DNA from: a virus
Taxonomy: Duplodnaviria > Caudoviricetes
Direction: 5' to 3' (one strand)
DNA: 64,000 bases
Virus record (IMG/VR): IMGVR_UViG_2867988698_000004
Coordinates: 32,001-96,000 of that record
The first letter of the stretch is position 1, and each line of letters opens with the position of its first letter. Under the pieces are notes generated by a model. That model saw only the letters and a program-made list of their open reading frames with translations, ran no database searches and was not told the origin of the DNA. Below, piece by piece: positions 1,644 to 50,201 of this stretch. A program made the translations under genes and the position numbers.

Positions 1644-1678
1644 CCCGGCCCCTGGCCAGCGGCTACATGATCAGGGTA
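1644..1678 (-). promoter_or_regulatory. Leader motif copy 1 (-10 TACCCT + GCCGCTGGCCAGGGGCCGGG)
   Basis: Repeated motif ending 25 nt before the start at 1618. Confidence 0.8.
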
Positions 1679-1748
1679 GCCGCTGCGCCGATGATCATCG
1701 CGTATCGGGCGGCCATGCTGACGGCCGTGGTGTCGGGGGCCGGTGGTG

Positions 1749-2096
1749 TCAGGGGCGGTGCCCGGTAAGCCGGGCGGCCAGGGCGGCGGGTATCCCGATA
1801 CCGGTCAGGGTGCGGTACCCCTCCTCTGCCTCCGCGGCGGCCTGGGCGGCTGCCGCGGAGGCGGCCTGCTCGGTCTCGCGCCGCGCCCGCTCCAGGAGCG
1901 CCTGCGCCTCCTCGGCGCTGATCTCCCGGCACCCGGCCGGGATCGACATCCGCACGCCGGCGGGATCGATGCCCGCCGCAGCCTGGAGGCAGCGGTGCAG
2001 TACCCGCCCGTCCGGATGGGCATACCAGCGTTCCCACACCGGCACCGGGCCGTCGCCTTGACCGCCGCCGCCGGTGGTGGGGGTGGGGGTGGTCAT
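1749..2096 (-). CDS. Small tail-fibre-associated protein (cassette 2)
   Basis: WYAHPDGRV...EISAEE...YRTLTGIGIPAALAARLTG; paralog family. Confidence 0.7.
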   Translation of the reverse strand: MTTPTPTTGGGGQGDGPVPVWERWYAHPDGRVLHRCLQAAAGIDPAGVRMSIPAGCREISAEEAQALLERARRETEQAASAAAAQAAAEAEEGYRTLTGIGIPAALAARLTGHRP

Positions 2097-2686
2097 GTCA
2101 GTCCCGCCAGCACCACGGCCTTGATCGTCCAGGCTGCTCGTGTCCATCGCGCACCTCCCGTGCCGCCGCCGAGCTCGATCGGATGGCTGAAGTTCGCCGA
2201 TCCCCCGGCGGGGATCACCGCGACCTGGAAGCTGGGTTCCACGAACTCCCAGTGGTTCTGCATGTTCGTGCCACCGGCCGGTGCGGCGTTGGTCACCCGC
2301 AGGAACTCGTTGGTGTCGACGCGGGCGGCCGCGGTGGCGTCCCCGTTCGGTGGCAGGTTCAGATCCACATCCACATGCACGAACTGCAGCACCGTCGCCG
2401 GGTAGCACGCAGACGGATTGGTGATGGTGATGGCCGCGGTCTCCACGATGGTGAACGCCGACGGCACGACGCTGTTGACGGTGCCGCTGCTGCCGCTGGC
2501 GGTCACCACCGCCAGCCTGGGCGGAGGCGGCGCCCACAGCCCCAGCGCCGGATCGATCCGCAGCGGGCTGGCGGCGGGGGCGCACGGGTAGGGCCATGCC
2601 TGCTCGGCCGGAGCCCCCGCCAGTGAGATCCGCAGCCGCCCCTGCTCGTCCGGCCGCATCTCCGGGCCGATGCACACGGTCGTCAT
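2093..2686 (-). CDS. Short tail-fibre C-terminal-domain protein (cassette 2)
   Basis: Shares AWPY and ITNPSACYPA..VDVDLNLP motifs with the C-terminal halves of both long fibres. Confidence 0.7.
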   Translation of the reverse strand: MTTVCIGPEMRPDEQGRLRISLAGAPAEQAWPYPCAPAASPLRIDPALGLWAPPPPRLAVVTASGSSGTVNSVVPSAFTIVETAAITITNPSACYPATVLQFVHVDVDLNLPPNGDATAAARVDTNEFLRVTNAAPAGGTNMQNHWEFVEPSFQVAVIPAGGSANFSHPIELGGGTGGARWTRAAWTIKAVVLAGLT

Positions 2687-2696
2687 CGGGGCGCCC

Positions 2697-3038
2697 CTAT
2701 CTGCCCTGCCCGGCGGCGTCCTGCGACTCCGGGTCCGGGGGGGTGTAGCCGGACAGGCGCCGGGCGATCTCCTCCGGGATACCGGCCGCGCGCAGCGCCT
2801 CATAGTCCGCCTTGGCGCGGGCGGCCTCGGCCTCGGCGACCTGGCGGCGCTGTTCCTCGATCGCCGCCTGGATGTCCGCGAGCGTCTGCTCGTACTCCTC
2901 GCGAGTGATCTCGACTGCGCCGGGCGGCAGCTGGTAGGGGGGCTCGTCGCCGGGCGGCTCGCCGGTCCAGTCGGGCCGCTCCACGGTCACCTGGCCCACC
3001 GAGCCATCGGGGTTGCGGTAGTACACCGTCGTCTGCAT
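2697..3038 (-). CDS. Small tail-fibre-associated protein (cassette 1)
   Basis: MQTTVYYRNPDGSV...EITREEY...YEALRAAGIPEEIARRLSGY; AGGAG RBS. Confidence 0.75.
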   Translation of the reverse strand: MQTTVYYRNPDGSVGQVTVERPDWTGEPPGDEPPYQLPPGAVEITREEYEQTLADIQAAIEEQRRQVAEAEAARAKADYEALRAAGIPEEIARRLSGYTPPDPESQDAAGQGR

Positions 3039-3046
3039 GGCGGCTC

Positions 3047-4171
3047 CTACAGGACGAAAACGAAAGCGCGGAGGAACGTCTGGATGCGGTTGTAGGTGGC
3101 GCCGCCGGCGCCGCGGCCCATCGTGATGTCGATGCTGAACGTTGCGCTGCCACCGGGCGGGATCGGCATCATGTTGGCCATCTTGGTGACCTGCACATGC
3201 CAGTCGCTGATGGCGCTGCTGCCGGTGTTGCGGTGGAACACCATCTCGTCGGTGGTGATCCCCATCGCTCCCGCTGCCCCGGCGGGCAGGTCGAAGTCGA
3301 CGTCGGCCTCGACCTCCAAGATCACGGCCGCCGGGCGGCATGGGTCGGGGTTGGTCACCGTCAGGGATCTGGTGGTCACCACGTTGTCGGCCCCGGAGGG
3401 GACGGCCGGGGAGGGGTAGGTGACGTTCTCCTGGGACTGCACGAAGTCGTAGCGCCCCCGCGGCTCAGACCGCAGGGCGCCGGCCGAGTCGCAGTACACG
3501 CCGCCGGCGTTGGCGTCCACCGGGCCCGCGTAGGGCCATGCCTGCGTCCGCGCCTGCAGGGGCGCGGCGGCCGTCCCATTACCGGTCAGGCCGCATGTCC
3601 CGGTCGTCACCGCCGCCCGCAGCCCACCCGGTCCACACGACAGCAGGTTCCCGGCCGCCGAGTCCAGCCGTGGGGACGCCGATAGGGGCGCCCCGGACCC
3701 GTCCCCCTCCATCTGGATGCAGTCGGTGTCCGCCGTGGTGACGGGGTTGCCGCCGCCCTGCGGCGCGAACAGGCCGCCGTCCGGGCCGATGCTCAGGGAG
3801 TTGCCGGCCTGGGTGGAGACACGGGCTCTGATCTGGTTGGCGCTGTCGTCGTACTCCAGGCCGTCCGCCAGCGCCTCACCGACGCAGTCCTGCACCGCCT
3901 CACAGGCGACGGTCAGCCCGTCCGGCCCCTGGGTGAGGAGGTTGCCGGGGGTGGTGGCGATGCGGACGGCGGCCGAGAGGATGTGCGGATCGGCGTCGGT
4001 GCCCGCCCCCAGCAGGGTCATGTCCACCGTGGGGGTGTCGTGAACCTGGAGGCCAGCGCCCTCGGCGGAGATGACGTAGGGGTTGCTGGGTGATCCCGTG
4101 CCCGCGACGGCTACTCCCGCACCTGCGGTCACCGCGCAGGTGCACTGTGAGCTACACCCACAACGTGCCAT
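3047..4171 (-). CDS. Minor tail/tail-fibre protein
   Basis: Paralog of 488-1618; follows the minor tail genes. Confidence 0.8.
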   Translation of the reverse strand: MARCGCSSQCTCAVTAGAGVAVAGTGSPSNPYVISAEGAGLQVHDTPTVDMTLLGAGTDADPHILSAAVRIATTPGNLLTQGPDGLTVACEAVQDCVGEALADGLEYDDSANQIRARVSTQAGNSLSIGPDGGLFAPQGGGNPVTTADTDCIQMEGDGSGAPLSASPRLDSAAGNLLSCGPGGLRAAVTTGTCGLTGNGTAAAPLQARTQAWPYAGPVDANAGGVYCDSAGALRSEPRGRYDFVQSQENVTYPSPAVPSGADNVVTTRSLTVTNPDPCRPAAVILEVEADVDFDLPAGAAGAMGITTDEMVFHRNTGSSAISDWHVQVTKMANMMPIPPGGSATFSIDITMGRGAGGATYNRIQTFLRAFVFVL

Positions 4172-4195
4172 GCCGGGCCTCCCTCCTGGGAGTCG

Positions 4196-4230
4196 CCCGG
4201 CCCCTGGCCAGCGGCTACATGATCAGGGTA
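4196..4230 (-). promoter_or_regulatory. Leader motif copy 2
   Basis: Identical to copy 1; 24 nt before the start at 4171. Confidence 0.8.
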
Positions 4231-4235
4231 GCCGT

Positions 4236-4436
4236 TCAGGGGGCGGCGATGATCGTGACGGCGCCGGTGGCCACATGCCGGGCGACCAGCCGCCCGGCCG
4301 CATCGACCTCCACCACCCACGCCCGGTCGCCGGCGCCCACCACTGTGCTGGTGCGGGCCTCCAGGCGGCGGATGCGGTCCTCCATCTGCCGCAGCACCTC
4401 CTCCAGGGTGCGGGGCCGGGGGTCGCGGACGACCAT
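4236..4436 (-). CDS. Small minor tail protein (coiled coil)
   Basis: 66 aa, LRQMEDRIRRLE; AGGAGG RBS; tail synteny. Confidence 0.7.
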   Translation of the reverse strand: MVVRDPRPRTLEEVLRQMEDRIRRLEARTSTVVGAGDRAWVVEVDAAGRLVARHVATGAVTIIAAP

Positions 4437-4463
4437 GGCGGGGCCTCCTGTTCAGACGGCTGC

Positions 4464-5522
4464 TCAGACGGTGGTGGTTTCGAGGCCGGCGGGGGCGAGG
4501 GTGACCTTGACGGCCTCGCCCGCGTTGCTGGTGTAGGTGACGGCCAGGCGGGTTAGCCGCAGGTCGGTGGCGACCTGCCGGCACCTCTGGGTGGCGGTGA
4601 CCGGGACGACCACGCCGGGCACCAGGTCCCGGATCGCCACGGGGGCCTGGGGGTCGAGCTGGGCTCCGTCCGGGACGTCCACGATCAGCGGCGCCGGGTT
4701 GCGGGAGGCGACCAGCGCGTCCGCCTCCGCCTGCGCCGACGCCTGGTCCTTGATGGAGTCCTCCTTGACGATCACCGTGAGCAGCCCGCACGGGCCGGGG
4801 CCGCCGGCGGTGGCGGTGATCCCTTCTCCGATGACGATCGCACGGGTGGCGGCGGCCAGGCCGTCCTCGATCACCCGGACGTCCCCCAGGAAGTCCTCAT
4901 CCGTCAGCGCCGGGAGGCGCGCGAACGGCATCTCCCCGGCGAGGATGATCCGCCGCCCCAGCGCCGTCCAGTCGATCCCGGTCCGGCCCAGCTCCCGCAG
5001 CTCATCCCCCGCGTAGGAGGTGTTCGGCTCGTATCTGCGTTCCCCGGTGACGCCGGACGGCAGCACGTACAGGTACGGCAGGATGTTCGGATCATCTGGT
5101 GCGAGGGCGGCGCGGATGACCTCCTCGGCGATCGCCGTCAGGTCGGCCGGGCCGGTGCCGGTAGCGGTGGTGCGGTCGATGAGGGTGGGGATCTCCCTGC
5201 GGGACAGCCAGGCGGACACGTCCCGCGCGGTCACCACCGTCTCCCCCGGCCCGTGGTCGAGGTGCACGACCGGTCCCTGCCAGACCAGCTCGCTGCCGTC
5301 CCGGTAGATGGACAGGTCGTTGCACCAGGTGCGGACGGCGGCGAGGGTGTCGCAGCACTCCACGTCCGCCACGGGGATGGTGACCTTGGCCTCGCTGGTG
5401 TCGTCCAGGATGCGGCCCCATTCCAGGGCGGATGGCTCCAGCGCGCCCCCGAACGGCACGCTGCCTGTGCGGTCGTGGAACGCCACTTCATACGTCTCGG
5501 CGCAGCCGAGCGGACCGGCCAT
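4464..5522 (-). CDS. Minor tail protein (tail-tip/hub type)
   Basis: LEWGRILDDTSEA, IYRDGSELVWQGPV motifs; second gene after tape measure. Confidence 0.75.
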   Translation of the reverse strand: MAGPLGCAETYEVAFHDRTGSVPFGGALEPSALEWGRILDDTSEAKVTIPVADVECCDTLAAVRTWCNDLSIYRDGSELVWQGPVVHLDHGPGETVVTARDVSAWLSRREIPTLIDRTTATGTGPADLTAIAEEVIRAALAPDDPNILPYLYVLPSGVTGERRYEPNTSYAGDELRELGRTGIDWTALGRRIILAGEMPFARLPALTDEDFLGDVRVIEDGLAAATRAIVIGEGITATAGGPGPCGLLTVIVKEDSIKDQASAQAEADALVASRNPAPLIVDVPDGAQLDPQAPVAIRDLVPGVVVPVTATQRCRQVATDLRLTRLAVTYTSNAGEAVKVTLAPAGLETTTV

Positions 5523-5525
5523 CGG

Positions 5526-6872
5526 TCAGACCTCCCGGGAGATGACGCGGATGGTGATCGTGGCGTCGGGGGCGATGGTGCCGCTGGCGGCTTCCACGCA
5601 CGCGATGTAGGGGACGCCGCAGTCCAGGACGGGCCAGGTGTACGGCATCCCTCCGGTGCCGGTGACCGCCGCCCCGGCGGGGGCTTCGGGGCTGCCGGGG
5701 CAGGTGACGGTGACTCGGCGGCGGGTGCCGTCGATCCGCAGGGTCGAGTACTCCGGGATGACGGTGACGTTGACCTCAGCGCACCACCCGCACTCCTCCA
5801 GCTCTTCGATCGTCCGGCCGAGGGGGTTGGGGTAGAACCGCACCCGCACGCTGCGGAGCGCGTTGCCGCCGGCGTAGATCTCGATGTCCGGAACCACGTC
5901 CGACCAGATGGGGGTGAGCACGCTGGAGGGGATGTCGATGCAATGCCGTCTGCGGGACAGCGGTTCGCAGGCGCACGGATTACCGGGCACCGGCAGGTCC
6001 GGCGGTGCGGTGGGCGCGCAGCCGAGCCCGGCCAGCGCGACATCCAGGCACGAGACCGTCACGGGCTCGCATCCGTCCTGGGTGGCCACGCAGTCCGGAT
6101 CGTTGGACCAGGTGACGCACGCGGCCTCCGGGTCCTCCTCGGTCCAGGTCTCCCCCGGCGCGGTGACGGTGATCGGATCCCGCAGCGCGTGCGGCCTGCC
6201 GGCGAGCAGGGTGAACTCGACCTGCTTGGGCGGGCAGGACTGGCAGCAGCCGCAGGACGCGCCCACGGCGCCGGTGACCTTCGGCCCGTCGATCAGCGTC
6301 ACGTCCCGCAGCGTCCGCCAGTGGGGGGCGGCGCAGTCCTCCACCGTGGTGAAGGCGGGGGCGTCCTCGCAGACCTCCGGGCAGCAGCTCAGGTATCGCA
6401 GGTCGTCTCCGGAGCAGCCGCCGCCCGGCCCGCACGCCATCGACCCCCGCAACGCGGAGGCGAGCCAGCGCATCCCGTAGTCGATGCCGCAGCAGGTCGA
6501 GCCGAGCAGGATGCCGGTCACAACGATCGTGCGGGGCCCGTACCGGCGGCGTCCGGCCACCGCGCCGTCCCCCAGCCGTTGCACGACAGGCCGTTCCACC
6601 GGTGCCGCGTCCAGACCCTCGACGCCGGTCACCAGCAGCCCGGCGAACTCGTAGCTTTCGGGGACGGCGTGGTCGAGCCATGGGGGCGGTGCGTGGGTGT
6701 CCAGGACGGGCAGCCGGTACTCCCCGTCTCCCAGGATCAGCGGCAGGTCCGAGCAGTAGCAGTCCCGCACCGTCATCGTGTGCGGTTTCAGCCCGTTGCG
6801 GGCGTAGGCGATGGTCCGGGCGGCATTGGCGATCTCCGTGCCGCCCAGGCAGAGCCAGTCCAACAGAGCCAA
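5526..6872 (-). CDS. Minor tail protein (distal-tail-like), Cys-rich
   Basis: First gene after tape measure; GDGAVAGRRRYGPRTIVVTG; 28 Cys in 448 aa. Confidence 0.75.
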   Translation of the reverse strand: MALLDWLCLGGTEIANAARTIAYARNGLKPHTMTVRDCYCSDLPLILGDGEYRLPVLDTHAPPPWLDHAVPESYEFAGLLVTGVEGLDAAPVERPVVQRLGDGAVAGRRRYGPRTIVVTGILLGSTCCGIDYGMRWLASALRGSMACGPGGGCSGDDLRYLSCCPEVCEDAPAFTTVEDCAAPHWRTLRDVTLIDGPKVTGAVGASCGCCQSCPPKQVEFTLLAGRPHALRDPITVTAPGETWTEEDPEAACVTWSNDPDCVATQDGCEPVTVSCLDVALAGLGCAPTAPPDLPVPGNPCACEPLSRRRHCIDIPSSVLTPIWSDVVPDIEIYAGGNALRSVRVRFYPNPLGRTIEELEECGWCAEVNVTVIPEYSTLRIDGTRRRVTVTCPGSPEAPAGAAVTGTGGMPYTWPVLDCGVPYIACVEAASGTIAPDATITIRVISREV

Positions 6873-6884
6873 CGTGGGTGCCTC

Positions 6885-9800
6885 CTATCGAGCCACGGCT
6901 GCGGCGATCCGGCGGGACACGGCGCCGCCCACGGCGTCCGGATCGGCGGTGGGCATGTGGACGGTGACCGGTGCGTGAACCTCCACCTGCCGCACCGGCC
7001 GCGACCGCCGATCCCCGCCCTGCCCGCCGCCGGTGGCGCGGGAGGCGGCGGCCGGCTGGAGCGCTTCCAGCGCCTGCCGGGAGCGCACCGGCAGCCGGTC
7101 GATGTCGGGGGCGGGCACCTGCAGCTGCGGTAGGGCCAGGGCCTGCTCCAGGCTGCGAGTGATCTGCGGTGCGAGCCGGTCCAGTCCGCGCAGGTAGCCG
7201 GCGAGGGTGTCCTCACCGAGGCCGGCCATCACCCGCGACGGCGACTTGATCTTGAGGGTGCGTTTGACGGTGGCGGCGACCTGCTCGGCGATTTGCCGCA
7301 TCAGCTTCTCGATGTCCTTCTGCTGGGCCTTGAGCCCCTCCAGGAACCCCGCCCCCGCCCGGCGGCCGGAGTCAAACAGCAGGTCGGCCGACTGCCGTCC
7401 CAGCGACTGGGCCGTCGTGGCGATCTCCTTGCTGGTGCGGTTGAGGTCCCGGATCACGCTGTCCGGTCCGGACAGCAGCGCATCGGCCAGCGCGGCGCCC
7501 TGTTCGGGTCCGGCGGCGATGATCTGGTCCAGCAGGTCCCGCGACAGCCCCCTCCTGGCCAGCGCCGCCACGTCGCTTTGGAACTCCTTGAGCAGGGCCA
7601 GCCGGTTCCGCAGGGCGGTGGCCAGCGCCTCGGCCGTGCGGGGGACACTGCTGCCCAGCGAGGAGAGCACCCCGGACAGGGACGCGAAGTCGCTGGCCTG
7701 GCGGGTGACCTCGGCGGCGCGTTCGTTGGCGGCCTTGATCAGGTCCGTGATCCGCGAGCGCTCGGCGGCCAGGGTCTGCAGCCGCCGGTTGGCGCCACGC
7801 AGCCGGGCGATGAGCTGGTCGTCCAGGCGGGTCCGGCGGCCGGCGAACGCGGTCTGGATCTTCTTGACCAGCGCGTTGATCGTCGATTCGATCTTGGACT
7901 GTTCGCCGGTCAGACCCTGGACGAAGCCCTGGCCAACGAACTTGCCGATGTCACGGAACACCTTCGACGGCGAGCCGATCCGCAGCAGCGACCGGGCCGC
8001 GTTGATGGCGTTGCGGATGGGGGCGGTCGCCGCGGCGACCATCCGCCCGGCCATGGACTGCACCCCGGAGATGAACCCCTGCATCGCCTGCACGCCCAGG
8101 GAGTAGAGGGCGGAGCCGAGGCCGGCGAGGGTGCCGGTGATGCGGCCCGGCAGTCCCCGCACTACCGACGCCGCCCGGGACACCCCGGAGGAGAACGCAG
8201 CGCCCATGCGGGCCATGGCGCTGGTGGCGAGGGAGCCCAGCCGTCCCGGCAGAGACGCGATCGCGGCCGCGGCCCGGCCGGGGAGCTGCGCCGCGAACGA
8301 CACCGCCCGCGACACCCCGGCCGAGATCGCGGCGCCCATGCGGGACATGGCGCCGGTCGCGATCGACCACATCCGCGCGGCCAGCGGTGCCAGGGCGGCG
8401 GCGAACCGCACCGGGATGGACGCGACCAGCGAGACCAGCCCGCCGAGCATCGACAAGATCCCACGCGACAGGGCGAGGATCGCCTGGACGCCCCACTGGA
8501 ACATCTGCGTGATCAGGGCCTGGGCCAGGGCCAGCAGGAGCCGCCCGACCGCGGCGAGGATGCCGGGTGCGGCGGCGGCGCCGGCCTGGATGACGGCAGC
8601 GCCGATGGTGGCGATGGCCTGCCCGATGACCGGCAGCAGCCGGGGGATCTGCTGCGCGAACGCGACCGCCACATCCAGGAGGAGGTCAACGAGGGACTGG
8701 CGGAGCTGCTGCCCGCCGGGTCCGGTGCGGGCGCCGGTGGCGGCCTGCCCCGCCGCCCGGTCCACCCCCTGGCCGAGCTGGGCGGCCATCTCATTGATGA
8801 CCTGTGGCAGGACCTCACCGGCCCGGCGGATCAGCGACGACAGGCCGTCTGCGATCCGCTGGGCCAGGCCGGGCAGGTGCGTGACCACGGCGTCCCCGGC
8901 CGAGCGGATGCCCTGGGCGACCATCGGCAGCAGCGCGCGTAGGGCCAGGTTCATGGCCCGGCCGATCTCCTGGCCGATCGCCGGCAGGTCCCGGGTGGCG
9001 AACTGGAACGCGGCTCGCAGCAGGTCCCGGATCCCGGCGGCGATCCGCGGCCCCTCGGTGCGCAGGGACGCCACCACCTGGGTGAACGCCTCCCGCAGCC
9101 CTTGGCCGATCTGCTGGCCGACGTCGGCCAGCCGGGCGAGCCCGGACCGCAGCGCGGAGATGAAGGAGGAGATCAGCCCCGGCAGGGCGGCCACCGCACG
9201 GGTGAACGCGCTGGTGAGGCCGGAGATGATGCGGGGTGCGAGGTCGGCTATGGCTGCGGGGATGCCGACCGCGATCCGCGCGAGCCCGGACAGGACGGCG
9301 GCGGCCAGCCCGGCGAGGGCGCGGGCGGCGACCGGGATCGCCTCCGCGGCGAAGTTCGCGATGCCGGAGCCGAGCTGCCGGAGCGCCGCCACGGCGCCCT
9401 CGGTCCGGAACGTCTGGACCAGGCTGGTGCCGAAGGCGCGCAGCCGTCCGAACAGGTCGGCGATGGTGTCTCGCAGCCGGCCCAGGAAGTTCCGGACGGT
9501 CTCCGACTGGGAGGCCAGCACTCCGAACGCCGCCGCCACGGCGAGGACGATGGCGGCGATCGGGTGCCGCGCCAGCGACGTCACCAGGGTGCGGCCCAGG
9601 CTGGCCGCGTCCCTGCTGGCGAACCGCAGGGCGGGCATGAGCGCGGTAAGCGCCGCCCCCCACGCGCCGGTGGCGATCCGCGCGGCGACCAGCGCCGCCA
9701 CCAGCGGGCCGAGGGCGGTGCCCAGCGGGGAGTCCGCCAGGGCGGCCAGCCCCTGGGCGACCACCGACAGGACCGGGGCCAGGAGCTGCGCGGCGACCGC

Positions 9801-11795: not shown

Positions 11796-11818
11796 CGGGC
11801 GCTCCCGACAGGGAGTGG

Positions 11819-11858
11819 CCCGGCCCCTGGCACAGACGGCGTCTAAATGATCAGGCTA
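11819..11858 (-). promoter_or_regulatory. Leader motif copy 3 (variant GCCGTCTGTGCCAGGGGCCGGG)
   Basis: -10 TAGCCT; 23 nt before the tape measure GTG. Confidence 0.72.
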
Positions 11859-13451: not shown

Positions 13452-13472
13452 GGGGAGCCTCCGTACACAAGG

Positions 13473-13508
13473 CCCGGCCCCTGGCCAGCGGCGTCACCGA
13501 TCAGGCTA
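13473..13508 (-). promoter_or_regulatory. Leader motif copy 4
   Basis: -10 TAGCCT; 21 nt before the ATG at 13451. Confidence 0.8.
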
Positions 13509-37415: not shown

Positions 37416-37437
37416 GGGGCTGGACCTCTTCTGGAGA

Positions 37438-37471
37438 CCCGGCCCCTGGCCAGCGGCTCAATGCCAGATTA
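37438..37471 (-). promoter_or_regulatory. Leader motif copy 5
   Basis: -10 TAATCT; 22 nt before the major tail ATG. Confidence 0.8.
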
Positions 37472-37596: not shown

Positions 37597-37633
37597 TAGA
37601 CTGCTGTCAGATAGCTGCTGGCCAGGGGCCGAG
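37597..37633 (+). promoter_or_regulatory. Leader motif copy 6, plus strand (TAGACT...GCTGCTGGCCAGGGGCCGAG)
   Basis: Divergent copy, 23 nt before the ATG at 37657. Confidence 0.72.
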
Positions 37634-37656
37634 CCCACACCGGGGAGGACCCCGCG

Positions 37657-38744: not shown

Positions 38745-38760
38745 GGCATCCTCCATGTCA

Positions 38761-39618: not shown

Positions 39619-39646
39619 CCGCCCACCTCCTCACATGGGGATTTGG

Positions 39647-39678: not shown

Positions 39679-39698
39679 TTCCTGAGGGTCACGGGGGG

Positions 39699-41393: not shown

Positions 41394-41416
41394 GAGGCGG
41401 GTTCCCTCACATCGAA

Positions 41417-41450
41417 CCCGGCCCCTGGCCAGCGGCTACGGATCATGGTA
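41417..41450 (-). promoter_or_regulatory. Leader motif copy 7
   Basis: -10 TACCAT; 23 nt before the capsid ATG. Confidence 0.8.
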
Positions 41451-42058: not shown

Positions 42059-42190
42059 TCAGGCCCCCAGCGCCCTCAGGAGGATCTCGATCACCCTCAA
42101 TCCGGTGTCGATGGCCGCAACCCACAGGGTCAGCAGCGCCACGTCCCGCCACCAGGGCTGATCTCGTCCTCCCTCAGGCGACCTCTGCAT
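42059..42190 (-). CDS. 43-aa hydrophobic peptide (below the ORF-track cutoff)
   Basis: MQRSPEGGRDQPWWRDVALLTLWVAAIDTGLRVIEILLRALGA; GAGGAG about 14 nt upstream. Confidence 0.4.
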   Translation of the reverse strand: MQRSPEGGRDQPWWRDVALLTLWVAAIDTGLRVIEILLRALGA

Positions 42191-44118: not shown

Positions 44119-44192
44119 GACCGTGGATTCTCCTCCCCCAGCGGGGGGCGTGGAGGGCGAACACGCGAACCTGCATGGCGGCGTGGACGTGG

Positions 44193-44230
44193 CGACGACC
44201 CCCGCCCGTCAGATGGGGCAGGGGCCGTCG
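44193..44230 (-). terminator. Stem-loop after the head operon
   Basis: CGACG-CCCC-GCCC / GGGC-GGGG-CGTCG inverted repeat. Confidence 0.55.
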
Positions 44231-44246
44231 AGGCTGCGGCGTGGGG

Positions 44247-44438
44247 TTAGCTCGTGGCGGTCGGCCGGGCGGGCTGGGCGGCGGGGGTGGTCTTGCCCTT
44301 CTCCCGGACGACCGCGCCCGGGTACCGCTTGGCGACCGCGTCGGCGGCGGGCTTGCTGGGGCTGGTCAGCTTGACCGCGCCATCGGGGGTGACGACCTCG
44401 TACTGGGTGCGGTTGCGCTGGCTGCAGGAACAGGCCAT
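44247..44438 (-). CDS. Small head-module protein (MACSC...)
   Basis: AAGGAG RBS; MACSC start and YEVVTPDG. Confidence 0.75.
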   Translation of the reverse strand: MACSCSQRNRTQYEVVTPDGAVKLTSPSKPAADAVAKRYPGAVVREKGKTTPAAQPARPTATS

Positions 44439-44439
44439 C

Positions 44440-47400
44440 TCAGACTCCTTCGTGGATCTCGGCCGCCAGGGAGGCGACCAGTTCGGCTCGGACCGGCTGC
44501 AGGGAGGCCTCCAGCTCGGCGATCTCCCGGCGGGCCTGCTCGCGGCGTTCCAGCTCGTCGGCCACCGCGGGGACCAGCGTGGGCATGAGCGCGGCCACTA
44601 GCTCCGGCGCCAGGGCGGCGGCCAGCCCCTCCACTCCCGCCGGCGTCCCGGCCGAGGCTCCGGCCGGTTCCTGGGTGGGGGCGCTGGAGGCGGTCAGCGC
44701 GAGGTTCGAGCGGGAGATCACCGCGCCGATCGCGGAGGCGGCCAGCGGGGTCGGGTAGCCGGGGACGGGCACCGACAGGACGGCCCGCAGGGACCAGCGG
44801 CCGTCCGCGTTCTGCCGCCAATGCCCGGAGGGCGCGCACGCCTGGAAGACGGCCCGGTCCCACTCCGACAGCCAGGGGGCGGCGGCTCCGGAGAACCACA
44901 TGCCGCGGTCGTTGGTGCCGACCGTGACCAGCCCGGCGACCGTCCGGGTGTTGTCGAACAGCGCGCGGACGCTGGGGGTGTCGGTGCCGTCGTTGTCGTG
45001 GCCGGTGTTCATGGTGAACACCCCGACCCGGATGGTCTGCCCGTCATCGAGCTGGATCCGGGACCGCAGGAAGTGCGTGGTGTCGACGTCCCCCAGGGAG
45101 TCGATGGTCAGGCACTGGCCGGAGTAGCCGTCATGGCACACCCCCTTGCGGGCGACCCAGCCGAAGATGCGGCCCTCGGGGGTGACGTGCACCGGGCCGT
45201 CGTCGGTGGGCAGCTCCTCCGGCGACGGCTCGGCGAACCATGCGGCCGGCAGCGGCGGAAGCTGCTGGAACTGCGCCCACGCCGAGGCCATCACCTCGTC
45301 CATCCCGTCCCCCTCCTCGTCCTCATCACGGTCCTCATCGCGGTCCTCGTTTTGGTCCCAGGGGGCGCGCAGGCTCGGGTCGTCGAACTCCTCGGCCAGC
45401 CGCTCGTACAGGTCCTCCACCCGGTCCCGCAGCCGCTCAACGTCCTGGTCGGGGATGTCGACGCCGCCGCGGCCGCCCTGCAGCACGTTCGCGACGGCGA
45501 ACACGCTGCGGGGGATGATGCGGAGCTGGTCGTCGTCCCACACGTCGGCGACGCCGAGCTTGTAGGCCGCCAGCGTCGCCGGGTCGGCGGACTCGTCCCG
45601 CCACAGGAACGCCCGTCCCAGCGCGTCCGGGTCCACCTCGCCATCCGGGCCGGTGGCGTACTCCAGGACGCGGGAGGCGGCAGCGTCCCCATCCCAGGGG
45701 TGGTCGCGGTCGGGGTGGATCGGCAGGTCCAGGTCCCCGCTCATGGCCGCCACCACCTCCCCCGGCCGGGCGGCGGCGGTGGTCTCCCCCTCCTCGGGGA
45801 ACGTGGCGGCGCCGGTGTAGCGGCCCGGGGAGACGCGGGTGATCCATCCGGCCTGTGCCGCGCGGGCCAGGTAGCCGCGGGCGCTGGCCACGCTCAGGCC
45901 GGTGTAGCGGGCGACGTAGGCGGCGCCGACCGGGGCCGGCGCGGAGGTCACCAGTTCCACGACGCTGCGCATGGTCTCGCCGCGCGGCCCGGCCGCTGCG
46001 GTCACCTCCTCGTCGAGGACGATGCGGGCCCGGTCGAACGCCGGCATCGCCACGAGGGTGGCGCCGCGGACGCGGGCGCGGGTGATCCGCATGACGTAGT
46101 CCCCGGCGCCCTCGCTGAACAGCACCTCACCCTCGCCGCTGTCCCGGTCCCCGGCCGCTGCGGACAGGGCGGCGGCGGGGAGTCCGGCGGCGGACAGGGC
46201 GGCGGACAGGCCGGTGGGGGTGACGTCTCCGGCCTCGCCTGTGGTCCACTCGACGGTGCGGGTGGCGCGGATGGTCCAGGTGCCGTCCGGCCGCTGCAGC
46301 ACCTGCGCGCTGGCCAGGGACGCCAGCAGCACCGGCGCCCCCTCCCCCTCCTCCTGTTGCTGTTCGTCGTGCTGGGTGGGGGTGCGGCGGTCGATGACCT
46401 CCACGTCCACGTCGTCCAGGTCCACCGACACCCCCAGCGGGGCGCCCCGCCGCAGCAGGGCGAGGGCAGCGGCTCCGGCGTCCCGGTCCGGGTACAGCAC
46501 GCCCGCGCCGGTGATGCGGGCGCCGTCGCGGCCCAAGGACTCGATCGACCCGGCGAGGACGGCGCCCTGGTGGCCGCCGAGCATCTCGTCGGCGAACTGC
46601 AGCGGCCACGGCCCCTCCGCCCAGTAGAGGGCTCCGGGGGCGAACAGGCGGCCGTCGCCGGTCTCCTCGTCCTCGAACGCCAGGGCGGTGCCGTCGGGGG
46701 TGGACCAGCGCACCGCCCCCGCCATGGCGGGCAGGTCGAGGTCGAGGCGGCCGGTGAGGGGGATGTCGGTGGCCTCGCCGGCGAACGCCACCCGCACCCG
46801 GTCGAAGGTGACGTCCCCGACCCGCTGGGCGACCTCGGCCAGCCGGGACAGGTCGGGGCTGTAGGCGAGGGTGACGTGCGGGATCCACGGCTCGTACTGT
46901 TCCGGCAGGCCGTCCGGTCCGTACTCCCCGACCGCCTCGCAGACGGCGTCGTGGACCATCGCCAGGCCGGTGCCGGACAGGCCCAGCACCAGCGCCGTCT
47001 CCTGCTCTGAGTCGCCGCCGGGGTTGAACGCGGACGCGGCGAAGGCGCGGGCCTGCACGGGCGGGTGGGTGGCGGTGTAGGCGGTGACGAGGTCGATGAG
47101 CCGGTCCCGCTCCTCGGGGGTGAAGTCGTCGCCGTTGCCGAGGTAGTAGAGGGTGGCGTGCAGCTGCTCGGGCGGCTCCCCGCCGTCGAGGGCCAGGCGG
47201 GCGAGGTCGTCGTCGCTGGGGATGAGCGCGATCATCGCCCCGCTGTAGGAGCCGGCGGCGGTCACCTCCTGGCCGTCGTCGGGTGTGGCTGCTGCGGTAT
47301 GGGCGGTACGCACGGTCCCTCGCTCCTCGTAGTGCTTGATGACCTCGGCGATCTGCTGGTCGGTCAGGTACTGGCGGCCCGCGTCGGGCGGTGGCCATGA

Positions 47401-48246
47401 GCCGTCCGCGTCGGAGATGAGCAGGACGCAGCGGCAGTTGATGACCAGGTCGGGGGGTGCGGTGGGGTCGCCGGGGCAGTCCATCGCCACACCGCCCACC
47501 GTGAACGTCTCGCCCAGGGCGACGCGCTGGCCGTCTGCGGCGAAGTGCGCGTCCCTGGTGCGGGTGTCGAGGGTGGCGAGCCAGCCTTTCACCAGCTCCA
47601 CGCCGACCTGCTCGGCCTGGGCGCGGGCGGCGGCCAGGGCGGCGCGGTTCCATGCGGCCACGGTCTCGGTTCGGGCGATGCGCGCGGCGCGGGCCTCCCC
47701 CAGCTGCACGCCCCCGGCGCGGAAGGCGTCCCGCACGCGGTCGCGTAGCTCGTTCGGGGTGTCGCCGGTGGCGATGCCGTCCGCGAGGGCCCGGCGGGCG
47801 GCGTCCCACAGGGCGTCGCCGACACCGGCGAGCCGGTTCTCCGCCTCCAGGACGTAGCGGCGGGCCAGCTCCGGGACCTCGATGGGCTCGGCGGGGGTTG
47901 CGGGGTCGGCGGGGTCGTGCGGGTCGTCCAGGTAGCGGCCGGGCAGGTCGTCCGCCCCCGCCGGTGGGGGCGTCCGCATCCACCTGTATAGGGCTTTATA
48001 GGCGGCCTCGTAGACGGCCAGGAGCGGCGCCACCACCTGTTTGATGCGGGCGGTCCACCAGTCCCGCAGCCGGCGTAGCGCGCCCGGGTCGGACGGATCA
48101 GCCGCCGCCAGGGCGGCGGCGGTGAACTCGCGTTCGAACAGCGCGGCGATCTCCTCCAGGGCGGCGGAGACCTGCCGTTCGATCATCGCCTCCAGGCCGG
48201 TCAGCGTGCGCTCGGCCGCCCGCCGCGCGGTGTCCAGCTCAGCCAC
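44440..48246 (-). CDS. MuF-like head morphogenesis / 2H phosphoesterase / capsid maturation protease fusion
   Basis: MuF (IARTE, KGWLAT.D.RTRDAH, INCRC); 2H pair HATL/HVTL; protease-like DGRLFAPGAL and GATLVAMPAF. Confidence 0.85.
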   Translation of the reverse strand: MAELDTARRAAERTLTGLEAMIERQVSAALEEIAALFEREFTAAALAAADPSDPGALRRLRDWWTARIKQVVAPLLAVYEAAYKALYRWMRTPPPAGADDLPGRYLDDPHDPADPATPAEPIEVPELARRYVLEAENRLAGVGDALWDAARRALADGIATGDTPNELRDRVRDAFRAGGVQLGEARAARIARTETVAAWNRAALAAARAQAEQVGVELVKGWLATLDTRTRDAHFAADGQRVALGETFTVGGVAMDCPGDPTAPPDLVINCRCVLLISDADGSWPPPDAGRQYLTDQQIAEVIKHYEERGTVRTAHTAAATPDDGQEVTAAGSYSGAMIALIPSDDDLARLALDGGEPPEQLHATLYYLGNGDDFTPEERDRLIDLVTAYTATHPPVQARAFAASAFNPGGDSEQETALVLGLSGTGLAMVHDAVCEAVGEYGPDGLPEQYEPWIPHVTLAYSPDLSRLAEVAQRVGDVTFDRVRVAFAGEATDIPLTGRLDLDLPAMAGAVRWSTPDGTALAFEDEETGDGRLFAPGALYWAEGPWPLQFADEMLGGHQGAVLAGSIESLGRDGARITGAGVLYPDRDAGAAALALLRRGAPLGVSVDLDDVDVEVIDRRTPTQHDEQQQEEGEGAPVLLASLASAQVLQRPDGTWTIRATRTVEWTTGEAGDVTPTGLSAALSAAGLPAAALSAAAGDRDSGEGEVLFSEGAGDYVMRITRARVRGATLVAMPAFDRARIVLDEEVTAAAGPRGETMRSVVELVTSAPAPVGAAYVARYTGLSVASARGYLARAAQAGWITRVSPGRYTGAATFPEEGETTAAARPGEVVAAMSGDLDLPIHPDRDHPWDGDAAASRVLEYATGPDGEVDPDALGRAFLWRDESADPATLAAYKLGVADVWDDDQLRIIPRSVFAVANVLQGGRGGVDIPDQDVERLRDRVEDLYERLAEEFDDPSLRAPWDQNEDRDEDRDEDEEGDGMDEVMASAWAQFQQLPPLPAAWFAEPSPEELPTDDGPVHVTPEGRIFGWVARKGVCHDGYSGQCLTIDSLGDVDTTHFLRSRIQLDDGQTIRVGVFTMNTGHDNDGTDTPSVRALFDNTRTVAGLVTVGTNDRGMWFSGAAAPWLSEWDRAVFQACAPSGHWRQNADGRWSLRAVLSVPVPGYPTPLAASAIGAVISRSNLALTASSAPTQEPAGASAGTPAGVEGLAAALAPELVAALMPTLVPAVADELERREQARREIAELEASLQPVRAELVASLAAEIHEGV

Positions 48247-48466
48247 GGCGGGCCTCCCTGGGGACGGCGTCGGCGCTGGTGTCCGGGGGGCCGGGGGTCC
48301 ATGCGCAGCGGGAGCACAGCGCCCAGCCGCCCACCGTCAGCGTCCCGGACGGGCCGAGCATGGTGATCTCGCTCGTCGCCAGGACCTCCGGGGCGCGGCA
48401 GGCGGGGCAGGCCATCCAGCGGACCTCCGATACCGAGGCGACCGGCGCCACGAACTCGGCGCTCAT
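48239..48466 (-). CDS. Small zinc-ribbon protein
   Basis: CPAC...CSRC; ATGA-coupled to the portal. Confidence 0.6.
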   Translation of the reverse strand: MSAEFVAPVASVSEVRWMACPACRAPEVLATSEITMLGPSGTLTVGGWALCSRCAWTPGPPDTSADAVPREARRG

Positions 48467-49821
48467 GCCGCCGGCTCCTCGGGCGGCCTGGTGGTCTCCT
48501 CGACCGGCAGGCCCTCACCATCCCCGCCGCGGCGGCCAGCGGTCGCCCGCGCCTGGGCGGCCTCGGCGGCGGTGGGGGCGTCGGCCTCATCGAACCCGGT
48601 CTCCCGGCGGGCGGCGGCTCCGGAGATCAGGCCCAGCCCGAACGCCTCCAGCGCCACCTGCGCCCGGTTGGTGCGGACCCGCAGCGGCGCGGTGTCGTAC
48701 CAGACCAGCCACTCGTGGGCGTCCGGGACGTTCTCGGCCTCGAGGATGGGGCGGAGCCACTGGGTGGTCAGGGCGTCGGCGACGGTGGCGAGCTTGGGTT
48801 CCACGCCCAGGCGGATCGCCTCCTCCTGCAGCGCCCAGGCGGACCAGTGGTTGGCGTCGCCCAGGCCCAGCAGGATCTCCGCGGGGACCTCCAGGCCGGT
48901 CGCGAACCGGCGGATGGCCTCCTCCCGCAGCCGGATCGCCGTATCGTCGAACGCGCTTTCGAAGGTGAGGCGCTGGATCTGCCCGATCGTCTCCGGGGGG
49001 ACCTCCAGCAGGATCGGCACCGCCGCGGCCGCGGACTCCGGATCGCGGATGGCGGCCTGCGCGACCTCCAAGAACACCTCCATCAGGTCGTCCTCGTCGC
49101 CGCCCGGCTCTCCCGAGGAGGGGAACCGCGCCCCCTGCGGCAGCAGCAGGACACCGCGGCCAGCGAGGCGGGACCGGGCGATGGCGATCACCGACGCCGA
49201 CAGCACCCGCAGCTCCTCCAGCAGGCCGAGGGAGGCGCGGACGGGTGAGTCGGCTTCCAGATGCTTGCGGGGGTGCGGGTCCCAGACCCGGATCGCGACC
49301 GGCCCCTCGGGGTCGATGCGATCGGGGTCGCCAGCGGGGATCTTGACCTCCTCCCCGTCGATCTCGGCGGTCAGGTCGTTGCCCTGCCGGCGCATCTCCA
49401 GCACCGACAGCACCCGCCATTCCTGGCCGTCCCCGTCGCCGGTGGGGGTCTCGGTGGGGCGGATGAGGATCCAGCCCTCCCCCGCGACCACTAGGTGCGG
49501 GCCGAACGCGGCCAGGAGCTGGGACTGGCCGAGGGGTCCTCCGGCGATGGCGGCGACGATCTCGGTGGCGCGGTGGCCGTCCGGGGCGGGCTCGATGCTG
49601 GTGCCGTCCGCTGACCGGCGGCCCGCGTACAGGCGGGCGCCGCCCATGGCGTTGCCCGCCCAGGTCGCGGCGAAGCGGACCTCGGGGGTGGTGGAGTAGT
49701 ACTCCCAGGCCGCTTCCTGCCAGGACTGGTTGGGTTCCTTGGCGCGGCTGAGGCGGCGCTCGACGAACCGGGCCGCCGCGGCGGTGAGCTCCCGGGGGCC
49801 GCGCCTGCGGCGGCTGGTCAT
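48463..49821 (-). CDS. Portal protein
   Basis: WQEAAWEYY..PEVRF, VWDPHP, SRLAGRGVL, NHWSAW; position after terminase. Confidence 0.88.
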   Translation of the reverse strand: MTSRRRRGPRELTAAAARFVERRLSRAKEPNQSWQEAAWEYYSTTPEVRFAATWAGNAMGGARLYAGRRSADGTSIEPAPDGHRATEIVAAIAGGPLGQSQLLAAFGPHLVVAGEGWILIRPTETPTGDGDGQEWRVLSVLEMRRQGNDLTAEIDGEEVKIPAGDPDRIDPEGPVAIRVWDPHPRKHLEADSPVRASLGLLEELRVLSASVIAIARSRLAGRGVLLLPQGARFPSSGEPGGDEDDLMEVFLEVAQAAIRDPESAAAAVPILLEVPPETIGQIQRLTFESAFDDTAIRLREEAIRRFATGLEVPAEILLGLGDANHWSAWALQEEAIRLGVEPKLATVADALTTQWLRPILEAENVPDAHEWLVWYDTAPLRVRTNRAQVALEAFGLGLISGAAARRETGFDEADAPTAAEAAQARATAGRRGGDGEGLPVEETTRPPEEPAA

Positions 49822-50144
49822 CGGGAGTCGTCCCACCGGTTGGCGAGGACGGCGGCGCCGGCGACCGCCAGCCACTCGATCCCGTGCACCAGCAGCGGGG
49901 CGTCGTCCCATCTGCCTGCGGCGAGGAGGTAGGTGGCGAGGATGGCGCCGGACAGCCACCAGCCGGTGCAGTACACGCAGCCGATCAGCATCACCGCGGC
50001 CGTGCGCACCCTGGATTCGGGGCGGCGGGCGTGCCAGGCGTGAACGGCGCCGCGGGCGGGGTCGAGAATGCTGTCGTGGACGGCCAGCTGGGTGGCACGG
50101 TACCCGGCCAGGGCTAGGACGAGGAGTTCGAGCAGGCTGAGCAA
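49818..50144 (-). CDS. DUF1360-like membrane protein
   Basis: LAGYRATQLAVHDSI, LIGCVYCTGWW. Confidence 0.75.
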   Translation of the reverse strand: MLSLLELLVLALAGYRATQLAVHDSILDPARGAVHAWHARRPESRVRTAAVMLIGCVYCTGWWLSGAILATYLLAAGRWDDAPLLVHGIEWLAVAGAAVLANRWDDSR

Positions 50145-50166
50145 GGGGCGCTCCCCCGCAGTGATG

Positions 50167-50201
50167 CCCGGCCCCTGGCCAGCGGCTCCATGATCAGACT
50201 A
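50167..50201 (-). promoter_or_regulatory. Leader motif copy 8
   Basis: -10 TAGTCT; 22 nt before the TTG at 50144. Confidence 0.8.

Follow-up and report, generated by a model that had tools for sequence, protein, structure and literature searches.

Lambda nut/boxB, with the N protein, and the put RNA of HK022 are promoter-proximal antitermination RNAs. The lambda N/nut system comprises a boxB hairpin, a boxA nearby, an arginine-rich N-type protein and terminators downstream; put consists of two adjacent stem-loops (~65-70 nt) that act on RNA polymerase without a protein factor. The 5' UTR of E. coli ompA and the phi10 leader of T7 are 5'-terminal stabiliser stem-loops, for which the stem is all that is needed, and the coat-protein operators of MS2 and PP7 are bulged protein-binding hairpins, those of the MS2 type enclosing the start codon. 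The start-associated sequences of cluster K mycobacteriophages are a 13-bp motif that abuts the start codon and includes the ribosome site, and the stoperators of cluster A mycobacteriophages and R4-like Streptomyces phages are duplex-DNA sites for repressors. To our knowledge, late-gene control in phages of Actinobacteria is poorly understood.

The stretch of DNA analysed here (the window, 64,000 nucleotides) comprises bases 32001-96000 of a 118,999-bp provirus record, an integrated actinobacterial phage, in which an earlier note had described eight copies of a short motif ahead of virion genes. All eight were recovered. A search with GCCGCTGGCCAGGGGCCGGG, allowing up to three mismatches, gave seven matches in the window (0.27 expected by chance, sd 0.55; none of 100 shuffles gave seven): six exact copies, all on the minus strand (1644, 4196, 13473, 37438, 41417 and 50167), and a plus-strand copy with two mismatches at 37614. 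The eighth copy, on the minus strand (hairpin 11818-11840), carries two 1-nt insertions (GCCG-T-CTG-T-GCCAGGGGCCGGG). The remainder of the 119-kb provirus, outside the window, contains no extra copy of the motif, and weaker model matches elsewhere in the provirus lie within coding sequence, away from any promoter or ribosome site. Every copy is oriented in the same direction as the gene that it leads. The eight cassettes, each with its -10 hexamer, hairpin and CM match, are as follows.

Cassette 1, 1643..1678, minus strand: -10 TACCCT 1673-1678; hairpin 1643-1663; CM match 32.3 bits; leads a fibre-like gene (488-1618).
Cassette 2, 4195..4230, minus strand: -10 TACCCT 4225-4230; hairpin 4195-4215; CM match 32.3 bits; leads a fibre-like paralogue (3047-4171).
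Cassette 3, 11818..11858, minus strand: -10 TAGCCT 11853-11858; hairpin variant with two 1-nt insertions 11818-11840; CM match 19 bits; leads the tape measure (6885-11795) and minor tail genes (5526-6872, 4464-5522, 4236-4436).
Cassette 4, 13472..13508, minus strand: -10 TAGCCT 13503-13508; hairpin 13472-13492; CM match 33.6 bits; leads the tail assembly chaperone (12981-13451) and 12346-12984.
Cassette 5, 37437..37471, minus strand: -10 TAATCT 37466-37471; hairpin 37437-37457; CM match 33.7 bits; leads the major tail protein (36723-37415), 35995-36759, the head-tail adaptor (35120-35962) and 34581-35129.
Cassette 6, 37597..37634, plus strand: -10 TAGACT 37597-37602; hairpin variant GCUG...CGAG 37614-37634; CM match 32.3 bits; leads a 63-aa HTH_17 gene (37657-37848), divergent from cassette 5.
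Cassette 7, 41416..41450, minus strand: -10 TACCAT 41445-41450; hairpin 41416-41436; CM match 31.4 bits; leads the major capsid protein (39699-41393) and 38761-39618.
Cassette 8, 50166..50201, minus strand: -10 TAGTCT 50196-50201; hairpin 50166-50186; CM match 32.2 bits; leads a DUF1360 gene (49818-50144), the portal (48463-49959), a MuF/2'-5' RNA ligase fusion (44440-48246) and a small ORF (44247-44438).

The promoter context reported for these copies was reproduced in full: the hexamers (TACCCT and TAGCCT twice each, TAATCT, TACCAT, TAGTCT and TAGACT) and their gap of 8-12 nt to the first base of the motif are exactly as stated in all eight copies, GATC follows the hexamer in six of the eight (it had been called usual), and the distances from motif to start codon are 25, 24, 23, 21, 22, 23, 23 and 22 nt, the reported range being 21-25 nt. 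No shared -35 element, likewise as reported, is visible in the upstream sequences, and a consensus promoter scan found none either. In the wider family, 49 of 56 leader copies have a TAnnnT hexamer whose end lies 3-18 nt (median 8) upstream of the hairpin, and four of the seven copies without a hexamer at this spacing are second copies of tandem pairs; the hexamer accompanies none of 11 regex matches outside leaders. In relatives, the hairpin lies anywhere from about 20 to 68 nt ahead of the start codon. Since the gap to the hexamer is kept while the distance to the start codon varies, the 5' end is what stays fixed; the fixed position claimed for the motif thus holds family-wide relative to the -10 hexamer, but relative to the start codon it is a peculiarity of this genome. 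Both sets of gaps (8-12 nt here, 3-18 nt in the family) fit a transcription start site 0-5 nt before the stem, given what we take to be the spacing of -10 element and start site in Actinobacteria. Judged from this spacing, the motif would be the start of the transcript, and the claim that the conserved part is transcribed rather than upstream of the promoter agrees with its location downstream of a -10-type hexamer, with its RNA-like behaviour (below) and with the predicted start site.

The hairpin consists of an outer helix (positions 1-3 with 19-21) whose pairs covary (G1-N21, C2-G20, C3-G19), an invariant two-base bulge (G4 C5), an inner helix (U6.G18, G7-C17, G8-C16, Y9-G15, N10-G14) and a loop of 3-5 nt that varies among relatives. 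In a first covariation test, on a sequence-only MAFFT alignment of 29 copies, this bulged model pairs 94.7% of cells, with changes on both sides of three pairs (13 cells); the covariation score of 0.357 (0.207 +/- 0.018 in shuffles) was equalled by none of 500 shuffles, and it collapses when the partners are slid by one column. A larger alignment, selected by and fitted to the model, comprises 78 model hits; 51 of them are distinct copies, taken from 12 phage or prophage genomes, and 96.6% of their cells pair. Pair 1-21 is there GC in 35, GU in 8, AU in 4, CG in 3 and other in 1; pair 2-20 is CG in 47, AU in 2 and UA in 2; and pair 3-19 is CG in 32, UG in 14 and UA in 5. Double-sided changes are seen in these three outer pairs; since the copies share ancestry, cell counts exaggerate the number of independent events, put at roughly eight. 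The G-U pairs exist on the sense strand only and are thus evidence of RNA. Covariation across related actinophages and prophages, which had been proposed as a check, is present and of RNA type in both the 29- and the 51-copy sets. G4, C5, U6, G7, G8, G15, C16, C17 and G18 are without variation in the 29-copy alignment, and an invariant core with a covarying outer helix is typical of a hairpin recognised by a protein.

The stem drawn in the earlier note (CUGGCC/GGCCGG) keeps its inner five pairs in this model but loses its closing pair C5-G19, and no covariation was found for it: a G-to-A variant disrupts C5-G19, whereas under the bulged model a C3-to-U change compensates. In tape-measure copies the insertions land in the bulge or make a second bulge, leaving the helices unbroken. 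The palindrome CTGGCCAG, put forward as a possible DNA site, is missing in relatives, which carry CTGGTTGT, CTGGCGTT or CTGGTGAT in its place. On this comparative evidence the motif is an RNA hairpin rather than a DNA palindrome, and the conserved part behaves as RNA. Of the functions suggested for it, a DNA site for downstream activation is disfavoured; it may be a signal for antitermination, processing or stability. In 56 modelled leaders, the hairpin alone folds at -4.2 to -12.0 kcal/mol; when folded from the hairpin through codon 5, merely four of the 56 have a G7-C17 probability of at least 0.5, and in the rest longer-range pairing of GGGCCGGG with downstream C-rich sequence is favoured over the hairpin. 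In nine capsid leaders examined with RNAalifold, the 5' hairpin is the sole conserved structure.

The hairpin is a family signal that does not depend on the cassette of this genome: preceded by a TAnnnT hexamer, it recurs ahead of capsid, major tail and tape-measure genes in the phages TurkishDelight, YDN12, Xkcd426, phiSAJS1 and Mischief19, in Gordonia phage Gaea, in a prophage of Actinomadura meyerae and in three IMG/VR records that have 8-11 copies each. With a model built from 29 copies, the tape-measure copy scores 19 bits and the other seven copies in the window 31-34 bits, and copies are found ahead of the major tail and capsid genes of Gaea; tandem copies precede some genes in relatives. 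The carriers are related phages of Streptomyces, Actinomadura and Gordonia; their capsids share merely 34-67% identity and the flanks are unrelated, while the hairpin is kept with compensatory changes. In two Actinomadura genomes (8.6 and 10.7 Mb), leader-type copies are confined to prophage DNA. Of 151 sampled class-level genomes, 135 have no match at E<=0.01 and 15 have a single marginal match each; only the A. meyerae genome, the centre of the sampling, has several. The hairpin is thus not a host feature. A cmscan of both strands of the whole window against Rfam 15 gave no match at family gathering scores, a text search of the literature found no account of such an element, and the hairpin is an uncatalogued expression signal.

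The observed copies, their positions, the RNA-type covariation and the family-wide distribution are explained, in the reading that we favour tentatively, by a 5'-terminal tag on virion mRNAs that a conserved factor would read and that would stabilise or boost them. The start site, the existence of a reader and stabilisation as the way in which the tag acts are what we infer. Each virion block would be driven by a host sigma-A-type promoter consisting of a -10 element only (G-n-TAnnnT, without a -35), placing the 21-nt bulged hairpin, 8-12 nt past the -10, at the extreme 5' end of the mRNA, where it would act in cis after initiation. The bulge and inner helix would be bound by a conserved reader with sequence specificity, be it a host component or one of the few proteins common to all carriers, and the bound hairpin would protect the transcript from 5'-end-dependent decay, giving high, joint expression of the virion genes. 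As in ompA and phi10, the hairpin would lie a few nucleotides from the predicted 5' end of strongly expressed mRNAs, fixed to the promoter and free in its distance from the start codon. Unlike them, it has about ten bases, the GC bulge and the U.G pair among them, that are invariant in phages of three host genera, and a specific reader is thereby implied. With the MS2 and PP7 operators it shares its shortness, an unpaired bulge, an invariant upper part above a covarying lower helix, and its position on genes for abundant virion proteins, so that feedback by a structural protein is conceivable; however, there is no likeness in sequence, the GC bulge is on the 5' strand, the loop is variable, and the hairpin lies 21-25 nt upstream of the start codon instead of enclosing it.

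Several points count against the favoured 5' tag: a passive 5' stabiliser would need no invariant bulge or inner helix; second copies of tandem pairs would be internal to the transcript, where 5' protection is inapplicable; and longer-range pairing outcompetes the hairpin in most modelled leaders. When the proteins were compared with six records, those with matches in three or more were virion and packaging proteins and a WhiB-like factor, for which TurkishDelight and YDN12 are among the matches; this comparison singled out no reader. It is possible, though doubtful, that the hairpin serves as RNA operator for a regulon of late genes conserved in actinophages of at least three host genera. One reader would then bind the invariant GC bulge and the U.G-G-C-G-C helix at the 5' end of each major virion mRNA and switch these mRNAs on or keep them alive; it would be a virion or packaging protein, since hardly any other proteins are common to all carriers, or a universal component of the host, for instance RNA polymerase. 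Such a regulon would work in the manner of the MS2 operator or of put, a mechanism not known from Actinobacteria.

The nascent hairpin might instead, alone as in put or with a factor as in N-boxB, make RNA polymerase resistant to termination and pausing, so that long virion operons are read through (e.g. the 4.9-kb tape-measure gene and the 6-kb portal-MuF block). Like nut and put, it is a small, multi-copy RNA structure just past a phage promoter, cis-acting (as proposed here) and with a conserved recognition surface. It is promoter-proximal in the same orientation as its gene, in Woodruffvirus phages the long tape-measure gene and the genes with the highest expression always have it in front, tandem copies would fit a dose of binding sites, and the invariance of bulge and helix hints at a specific reader. 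We nevertheless consider antitermination rather unlikely. The hairpin shows no apparent boxA/boxB consensus and has no Rfam match, and neither an N-like gene nor a known antiterminator family was found in the ORFs scanned (Pfam, 76; PHROGs, 62). It sits at the extreme predicted 5' end, to which nut and put require no tight link, and is separated from the gene by a leader of merely 21-25 nt here, with no terminator between; a terminator scan, which needs a T-run and may miss actinobacterial terminators, found no site in 1-15000; in 34000-53000 it found 5 (3.8 expected), none within a leader. One bulged stem of 21 nt, to which RNAalifold on the nine capsid leaders adds nothing further, is also much smaller than put. 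A translational switch, in which the 3' strand of the hairpin (GGGGCCGGG) would pair instead with the C-rich stretch before the start codon, and hairpin formation or factor binding would free or occlude the ribosome site, is distinctly improbable, even though this pairing is used by most whole-leader minimum-energy folds and, in this genome, complementarity to GGGGCCGGG is higher in the 30 nt around the starts of the eight hairpin-led genes than around the starts of 67 other ribosome-site genes (median duplex energy -13.35 vs -9.4 kcal/mol; one-sided Mann-Whitney p=0.0005; effective n=7, the fibre leaders being duplicated). In five other genomes the complementarity fails to reach significance (p=0.05-0.40, 1-4 hairpin-led genes each), chance G-rich/C-rich pairing is easy at 72% GC, the distance from hairpin to start varies in relatives, and the structure conserved among the nine capsid leaders is the 5' hairpin alone. 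The likeness that had been drawn to start-associated sequences extends to a short repeated motif ahead of many actinophage genes, but fails in that this one is structured RNA tied to the promoter, lies 20-68 nt ahead of the start codon and stays clear of the ribosome site, which belongs to the variable part.

Recognition of the 20 bp at +1 to +20 as duplex DNA by a phage repressor or activator, keeping virion genes off in the lysogen in the manner of stoperators or of an operator overlapping the start site, would suit an asymmetric multi-copy intergenic site oriented with transcription, its overlap with the predicted start site, its roughly ten invariant bases and the palindrome CTGGCCAG in this genome's version. 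This is nonetheless highly improbable: compensatory and G-U changes in three pairs are meaningless for a duplex DNA site, insertions of one and two bases between the conserved halves are tolerated, and the palindrome is absent from relatives. Woodruffvirus phages also carry the element, among them Geonosis, which PMC11536984 describes as virulent, and no integrase or repressor is annotated in the record of YDN12. That the motif has no function of its own, being a recently duplicated promoter fragment carried along as insertions broke up the virion module, is hardly credible and is disfavoured by the comparative data. The ~40-nt cassette (GGCTAnnCTGATCATGTA plus hairpin) is indeed almost identical among the copies of this genome, with the loop CCAGG in all eight, but compensatory changes keep the hairpin in relatives as divergent as those above, and in TurkishDelight, where the virion module is contiguous, it precedes the same genes nonetheless.

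A compact, covariation-supported RNA element thus marks capsid, tail and tape-measure mRNAs. It is present in the laboratory phages YDN12, Xkcd426, phiSAJS1, TurkishDelight and Gaea as well as in prophages, so its role is directly testable with existing phage-host pairs. If a specific reader exists, the element would open a new way to handle late expression of phages, supply Streptomyces engineering with a portable high-expression leader, and mark virion operons in scattered or degraded prophages like the present one.

Family assignments of the led genes include Phage_TAC_16, major tail phrog_792, major head phrog_777, portal phrog_776 and HTH_17, and one led block has the gene order DUF1360, portal (phrog_776), MuF fusion. 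The identities given in the earlier note stand for the tape measure, chaperone, major tail, capsid, DUF1360-portal-MuF and HTH_17 genes, but the two genes called fibres have no family match. Both weakly resemble the annotated tailspike of Streptomyces phage TurkishDelight (36% over 112 aa and 45% over 62 aa), and their leaders are duplicates of each other.

The record, classed by IMG/VR as a provirus, is 118,999 bp long, and the window (bases 32001-96000 of it) has 72% G+C. Pfam and PHROGs scans of the ORFs called in the window found a siphovirus virion module on the minus strand, split by blocks of non-virion genes of which the largest lies at about 13.5-34.5 kb.

Virion genes of the window (from Pfam and PHROGs scans, except the fibre-like paralogues, which are from ORF calls)
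54946-55404, minus strand, small terminase-like protein
53340-54983, minus strand, large terminase
44440-50144, minus strand, DUF1360, portal, and MuF / 2'-5' RNA ligase fusion (1268 aa)
39699-41393, minus strand, major capsid
34581-37415, minus strand, major tail, adaptor and connector genes
4236-13451, minus strand, tail chaperone, tape measure and minor tail genes
488-1618 and 3047-4171, minus strand, two fibre-like paralogues

By its capsid protein the phage is closest, among named relatives, to Streptomyces phage TurkishDelight (67.5% over 74% of the query) and to the Woodruffvirus (cluster BG) phages, and by its major tail protein to a prophage of Actinomadura meyerae (85%); these nearest relatives point to an Actinomadura-like actinomycete as the probable host.

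Eight cassettes, each consisting of a -10 hexamer and a bulged hairpin of 21 nt, head gene blocks in the window. The repeated 20-mer occurs in six exact copies and one copy with two mismatches, versus 0.27 expected in the window; the eighth copy, ahead of the tape-measure gene, has two single-base insertions. No further leader-type copy was found in the whole 119 kb by a covariance model built from the alignment. Re-reading the sequence gave exactly the eight TAnnnT hexamers named in the earlier note, and the distances that it reported were reproduced: the motif begins 8-12 nt after the hexamer, which is followed by GATC in six of the eight copies, and ends 21-25 nt before the start codon. There is also a G two bases 5' of the hexamer in seven of eight (G-n-TAnnnT). 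As had been claimed, no common -35 was found in the upstream sequences of the eight copies or by a consensus promoter scan, consensus sigma-70 and terminator scans being uninformative at the GC content of the window. Actinobacterial sigma-A promoters have the form TANNNT, with transcription starting about 6-8 nt downstream; given this spacing, transcripts should begin 0-5 nt 5' of the motif. The cassettes are about 40 nt long and nearly identical to each other, and their start-codon spacing, GATC and uniform CCAGG loop are peculiar to this genome. Those of the two fibre-like paralogues are identical, as nearly are the first ~35 coding bases, which encode a Cys-rich N-terminus (M-A-R-C-G-C-S-S-Q-C...); TurkishDelight gp33, the A. 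meyerae prophage and three IMG/VR comparison records (G004-G006) have comparable Cys-rich starts downstream of the hairpin.

Two models of the stem were compared on a MAFFT alignment of 29 copies. The stem proposed earlier, from C5-G19 to C10-G14, has no pairs with changes on both sides and three broken cells; its inner pairs (6-18 to 10-14) were retained, but the C5-G19 register was not. In the bulged model, an outer helix (1-21, 2-20, 3-19) is separated by a bulge (G4 C5) from an inner helix (6-18, 7-17, 8-16, 9-15, 10-14); 94.7% of cells pair, double changes occur in three pairs (13 cells), and the covariation score is 0.357 versus 0.207 +/- 0.018 for shuffles, none of 500 reaching it. Shifting the partners by one column drops pairing to 51-55%. 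G4, C5, U6, G7, G8, G15, C16, C17 and G18 are invariant in this alignment and the outer helix covaries, while the loop varies both between and within genomes. The model from this alignment recovered 78 matches (51 distinct) in 12 genomes, and 96.6% of cells pair in this set, which was chosen by and fitted to the model and whose copies are related by descent. Here pair 2-20 is C-G, A-U or U-A, and pair 3-19 is C-G, U-G or U-A with no mismatches. We estimate about eight independent compensatory events, among them the change of G19 to A together with C3 to U in the HTH_17 copy of the window. Where tape-measure copies have insertions, these enlarge the bulge or separate G7 from G8.

The hairpin extends to relatives in other sequence forms. 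TurkishDelight has GCCGCTGGTTNTGGGCCGGG 3' of a TAnnnT hexamer ahead of its capsid, major tail (two tandem copies), chaperone, tape-measure (two copies), gp30, gp32 and gp33 genes, and the Woodruffvirus phages YDN12, Xkcd426, phiSAJS1 and Mischief19 have GCYGCTGGCGKTAGGCCGRG or variants ahead of the capsid, major tail and tape-measure genes. Because these motif sequences differ, the palindrome CTGGCCAG, noted earlier in the DNA of the motif, is confined to this genome. The exact motif is also private to this phage, since an exact 15-mer matched 95 loci in IMG/VR, one per contig and without leader context, except for one in comparison record G001; relatives with the hairpin were instead found through their proteins. 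There are 8-11 copies in each of G004, G005 and G006, and four in the A. meyerae prophage contig, ahead of fibre-like, tape-measure, chaperone-region and major tail genes; the remaining matches in two Actinomadura genomes are within coding sequence. An IMG/VR pattern scan gave at least 129 loci, and 22 of the matches listed passed a leader filter (G before the pattern, TAnnnT upstream, ribosome site and start codon downstream). In Gordonia phage Gaea, whose capsid protein is 34% identical, copies of the hairpin stand 35 nt ahead of the major tail gene (28.6 bits) and 47 nt ahead of the capsid gene (20.2 bits). Among 151 sampled class-level genomes, 135 had no match at E<=0.01 and 15 had one marginal match each, several matches being found only in A. 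meyerae, the genome used as centre. No conclusion here depends on two of the single-match genomes, G048 and G020, which are unpublished. In four Woodruffvirus genomes (L114, L128, L129, L113), many other rightward genes have, 25-40 nt ahead of them, a promoter of another class (TAGACTGG / TAAGCTGG), which is commoner than the first and lacks the hairpin; thus, only some of the late promoters of these phages bear the hairpin.

Position relative to the hexamer is constrained across the family: of 56 leader copies, 49 have a hexamer 3-18 nt (median 8) ahead of the hairpin, and four of the seven that do not are second members of tandem pairs. The distance from the hairpin to the start codon varies from 20 to 68 nt. 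The tape-measure copy of the window has the same extra bulge base as that of TurkishDelight, and a bulge between G7 and G8 in common with Woodruffvirus copies, which argues that the copies are old and orthologous by gene rather than recent duplicates. That the loop evolves in concert with a genome-specific reader was hinted at by CCAGG in all eight copies here and TTNTG in TurkishDelight; it was set aside as weakened by A. meyerae, of which the prophage has three loops in four copies (TGATG twice, CGATG, CGTTG) and the genome five different loops in six listed matches, two of the six being coding-sequence noise. The central loop base varies within the TTNTG genomes.

Position and conservation together suggest a 5'-end element that is read sequence-specifically. 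Such an element must occupy the very 5' end of the RNA, where a putative factor would recognize the hairpin by its sequence, and the bound hairpin would then protect and mark late mRNAs, a tentative reading to which we give a little less than an even chance. Against it, whole-leader folding predicts that in 52 of the 56 leaders modelled the hairpin gives way to longer-range pairings, the second copies of tandem pairs lie within the transcript and not at its end, and the search for a reader gave none. An antitermination or processivity signal is doubtful; the consensus scan placed no terminator in the leaders, and no known antiterminator gene was found. A duplex-energy test (p=0.0005) in this genome only would favour a translational switch, which is nevertheless unlikely, as the result was not replicated in other genomes and RNAalifold gave no conserved second structure, nor a second hairpin conserved across capsid leaders.

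As for DNA, the G-U pairs exist on the sense strand only, which argues strongly against a duplex reading, and a DNA operator seems very unlikely. A palindromic or direct-repeat DNA site (GCYGG, 11-bp spacing) was dropped given the covariation, as was a Chi-like site (GCTGGTG-like core), because the motif is confined to leaders and its flanks covary. That the hairpin is a functionless duplicate is extremely improbable.

A search for genes shared with six comparison records found no reader for the hairpin; apart from virion and packaging proteins, what was matched in at least three of the six was a WhiB-like factor. This protein (97 aa; 110551-110844 of the whole record, beyond the window) also occurs in TurkishDelight (gp66) and YDN12 (gp37), and hardly any other non-structural protein is shared by phages that carry the hairpin. 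It would plausibly act with the -35-less promoter and not with the RNA. Nothing that points to a reader came from the small basic ORFs (HTH_17 and a 63-aa ORF at 44250-44438).

The element matches nothing in Rfam 15, and literature searches with motif sequence strings returned only unrelated papers; keyword searches (Streptomyces phage, cluster BG and promoter, among others) returned nothing on it. It goes unmentioned in the matched passages of PMC5511901, PMC11536984, PMC11302927, PMC13722658 and PMC10986025. It belongs with the promoter-proximal cis-acting phage leader RNAs, but has neither sequence nor shape in common with nut, put or the T7 leaders. A phiC31 late promoter, reportedly described by Howe and Smith in 1996, could bear on its novelty.

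In TurkishDelight and G005, where a tandem pair of hairpins precedes the major tail gene, the second copy is a GCUG...CGAG variant. In the window (37437-37634 region) this variant is inverted and lies 156 bp from the major-tail copy, heading the 63-aa HTH_17 gene on the other strand; a YDN12 HTH gene of the same length has the -10 hexamer and no hairpin. In the modelled folds, tape-measure leaders (window 11795-11840; L112 22929-22982; G004, G005 and G006) have in common a second strong hairpin, GGGC(A/G)ACC...GGUUGCCC, which overlaps the 5' hairpin by the final bases of the latter, takes in the ribosome site and runs up to the start codon; the window version has CUCCC-UGUC-GGGAG between GCCGGGCC and GCCCGG.

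The non-virion DNA within the tail module (13500-34580; ~21 kb) lies between chaperone genes and head-tail connector genes, the corresponding virion genes being contiguous in TurkishDelight. It encodes two Methyltransf_19 proteins, a radical SAM enzyme, an EEP nuclease, CYTH, a PhyH dioxygenase, a protein kinase, an HNH-helicase fusion and two ~410-460-aa HTH_3/HTH_31 regulators (phrog_5823). Lone accessory genes between virion operons (42778-44118, 50340-52019 and 55477-56898; Pfam) encode a PIN_12 protein, a 559-aa pentapeptide-repeat protein (opposite strand) and a full-length aldehyde dehydrogenase adjoining the terminase genes. The MuF fusion (44440-48246; head morphogenesis) combines Phage_Mu_F and 2'-5' RNA ligase superfamily domains, and its relatives are annotated as capsid maturation protease and MuF-like fusions. 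At 56898-63487, the genes run from a ParB_N protein through three ~465-aa PAPS_reduct + DUF3440 paralogues and a GATase_6 protein to a shorter PAPS_reduct protein, possibly a DNA-modification module; the arrangement resembles IbrB/IbrA-type pairs. ParB-like, methyltransferase and amidotransferase genes are at a similar position at the end of the TurkishDelight genome.
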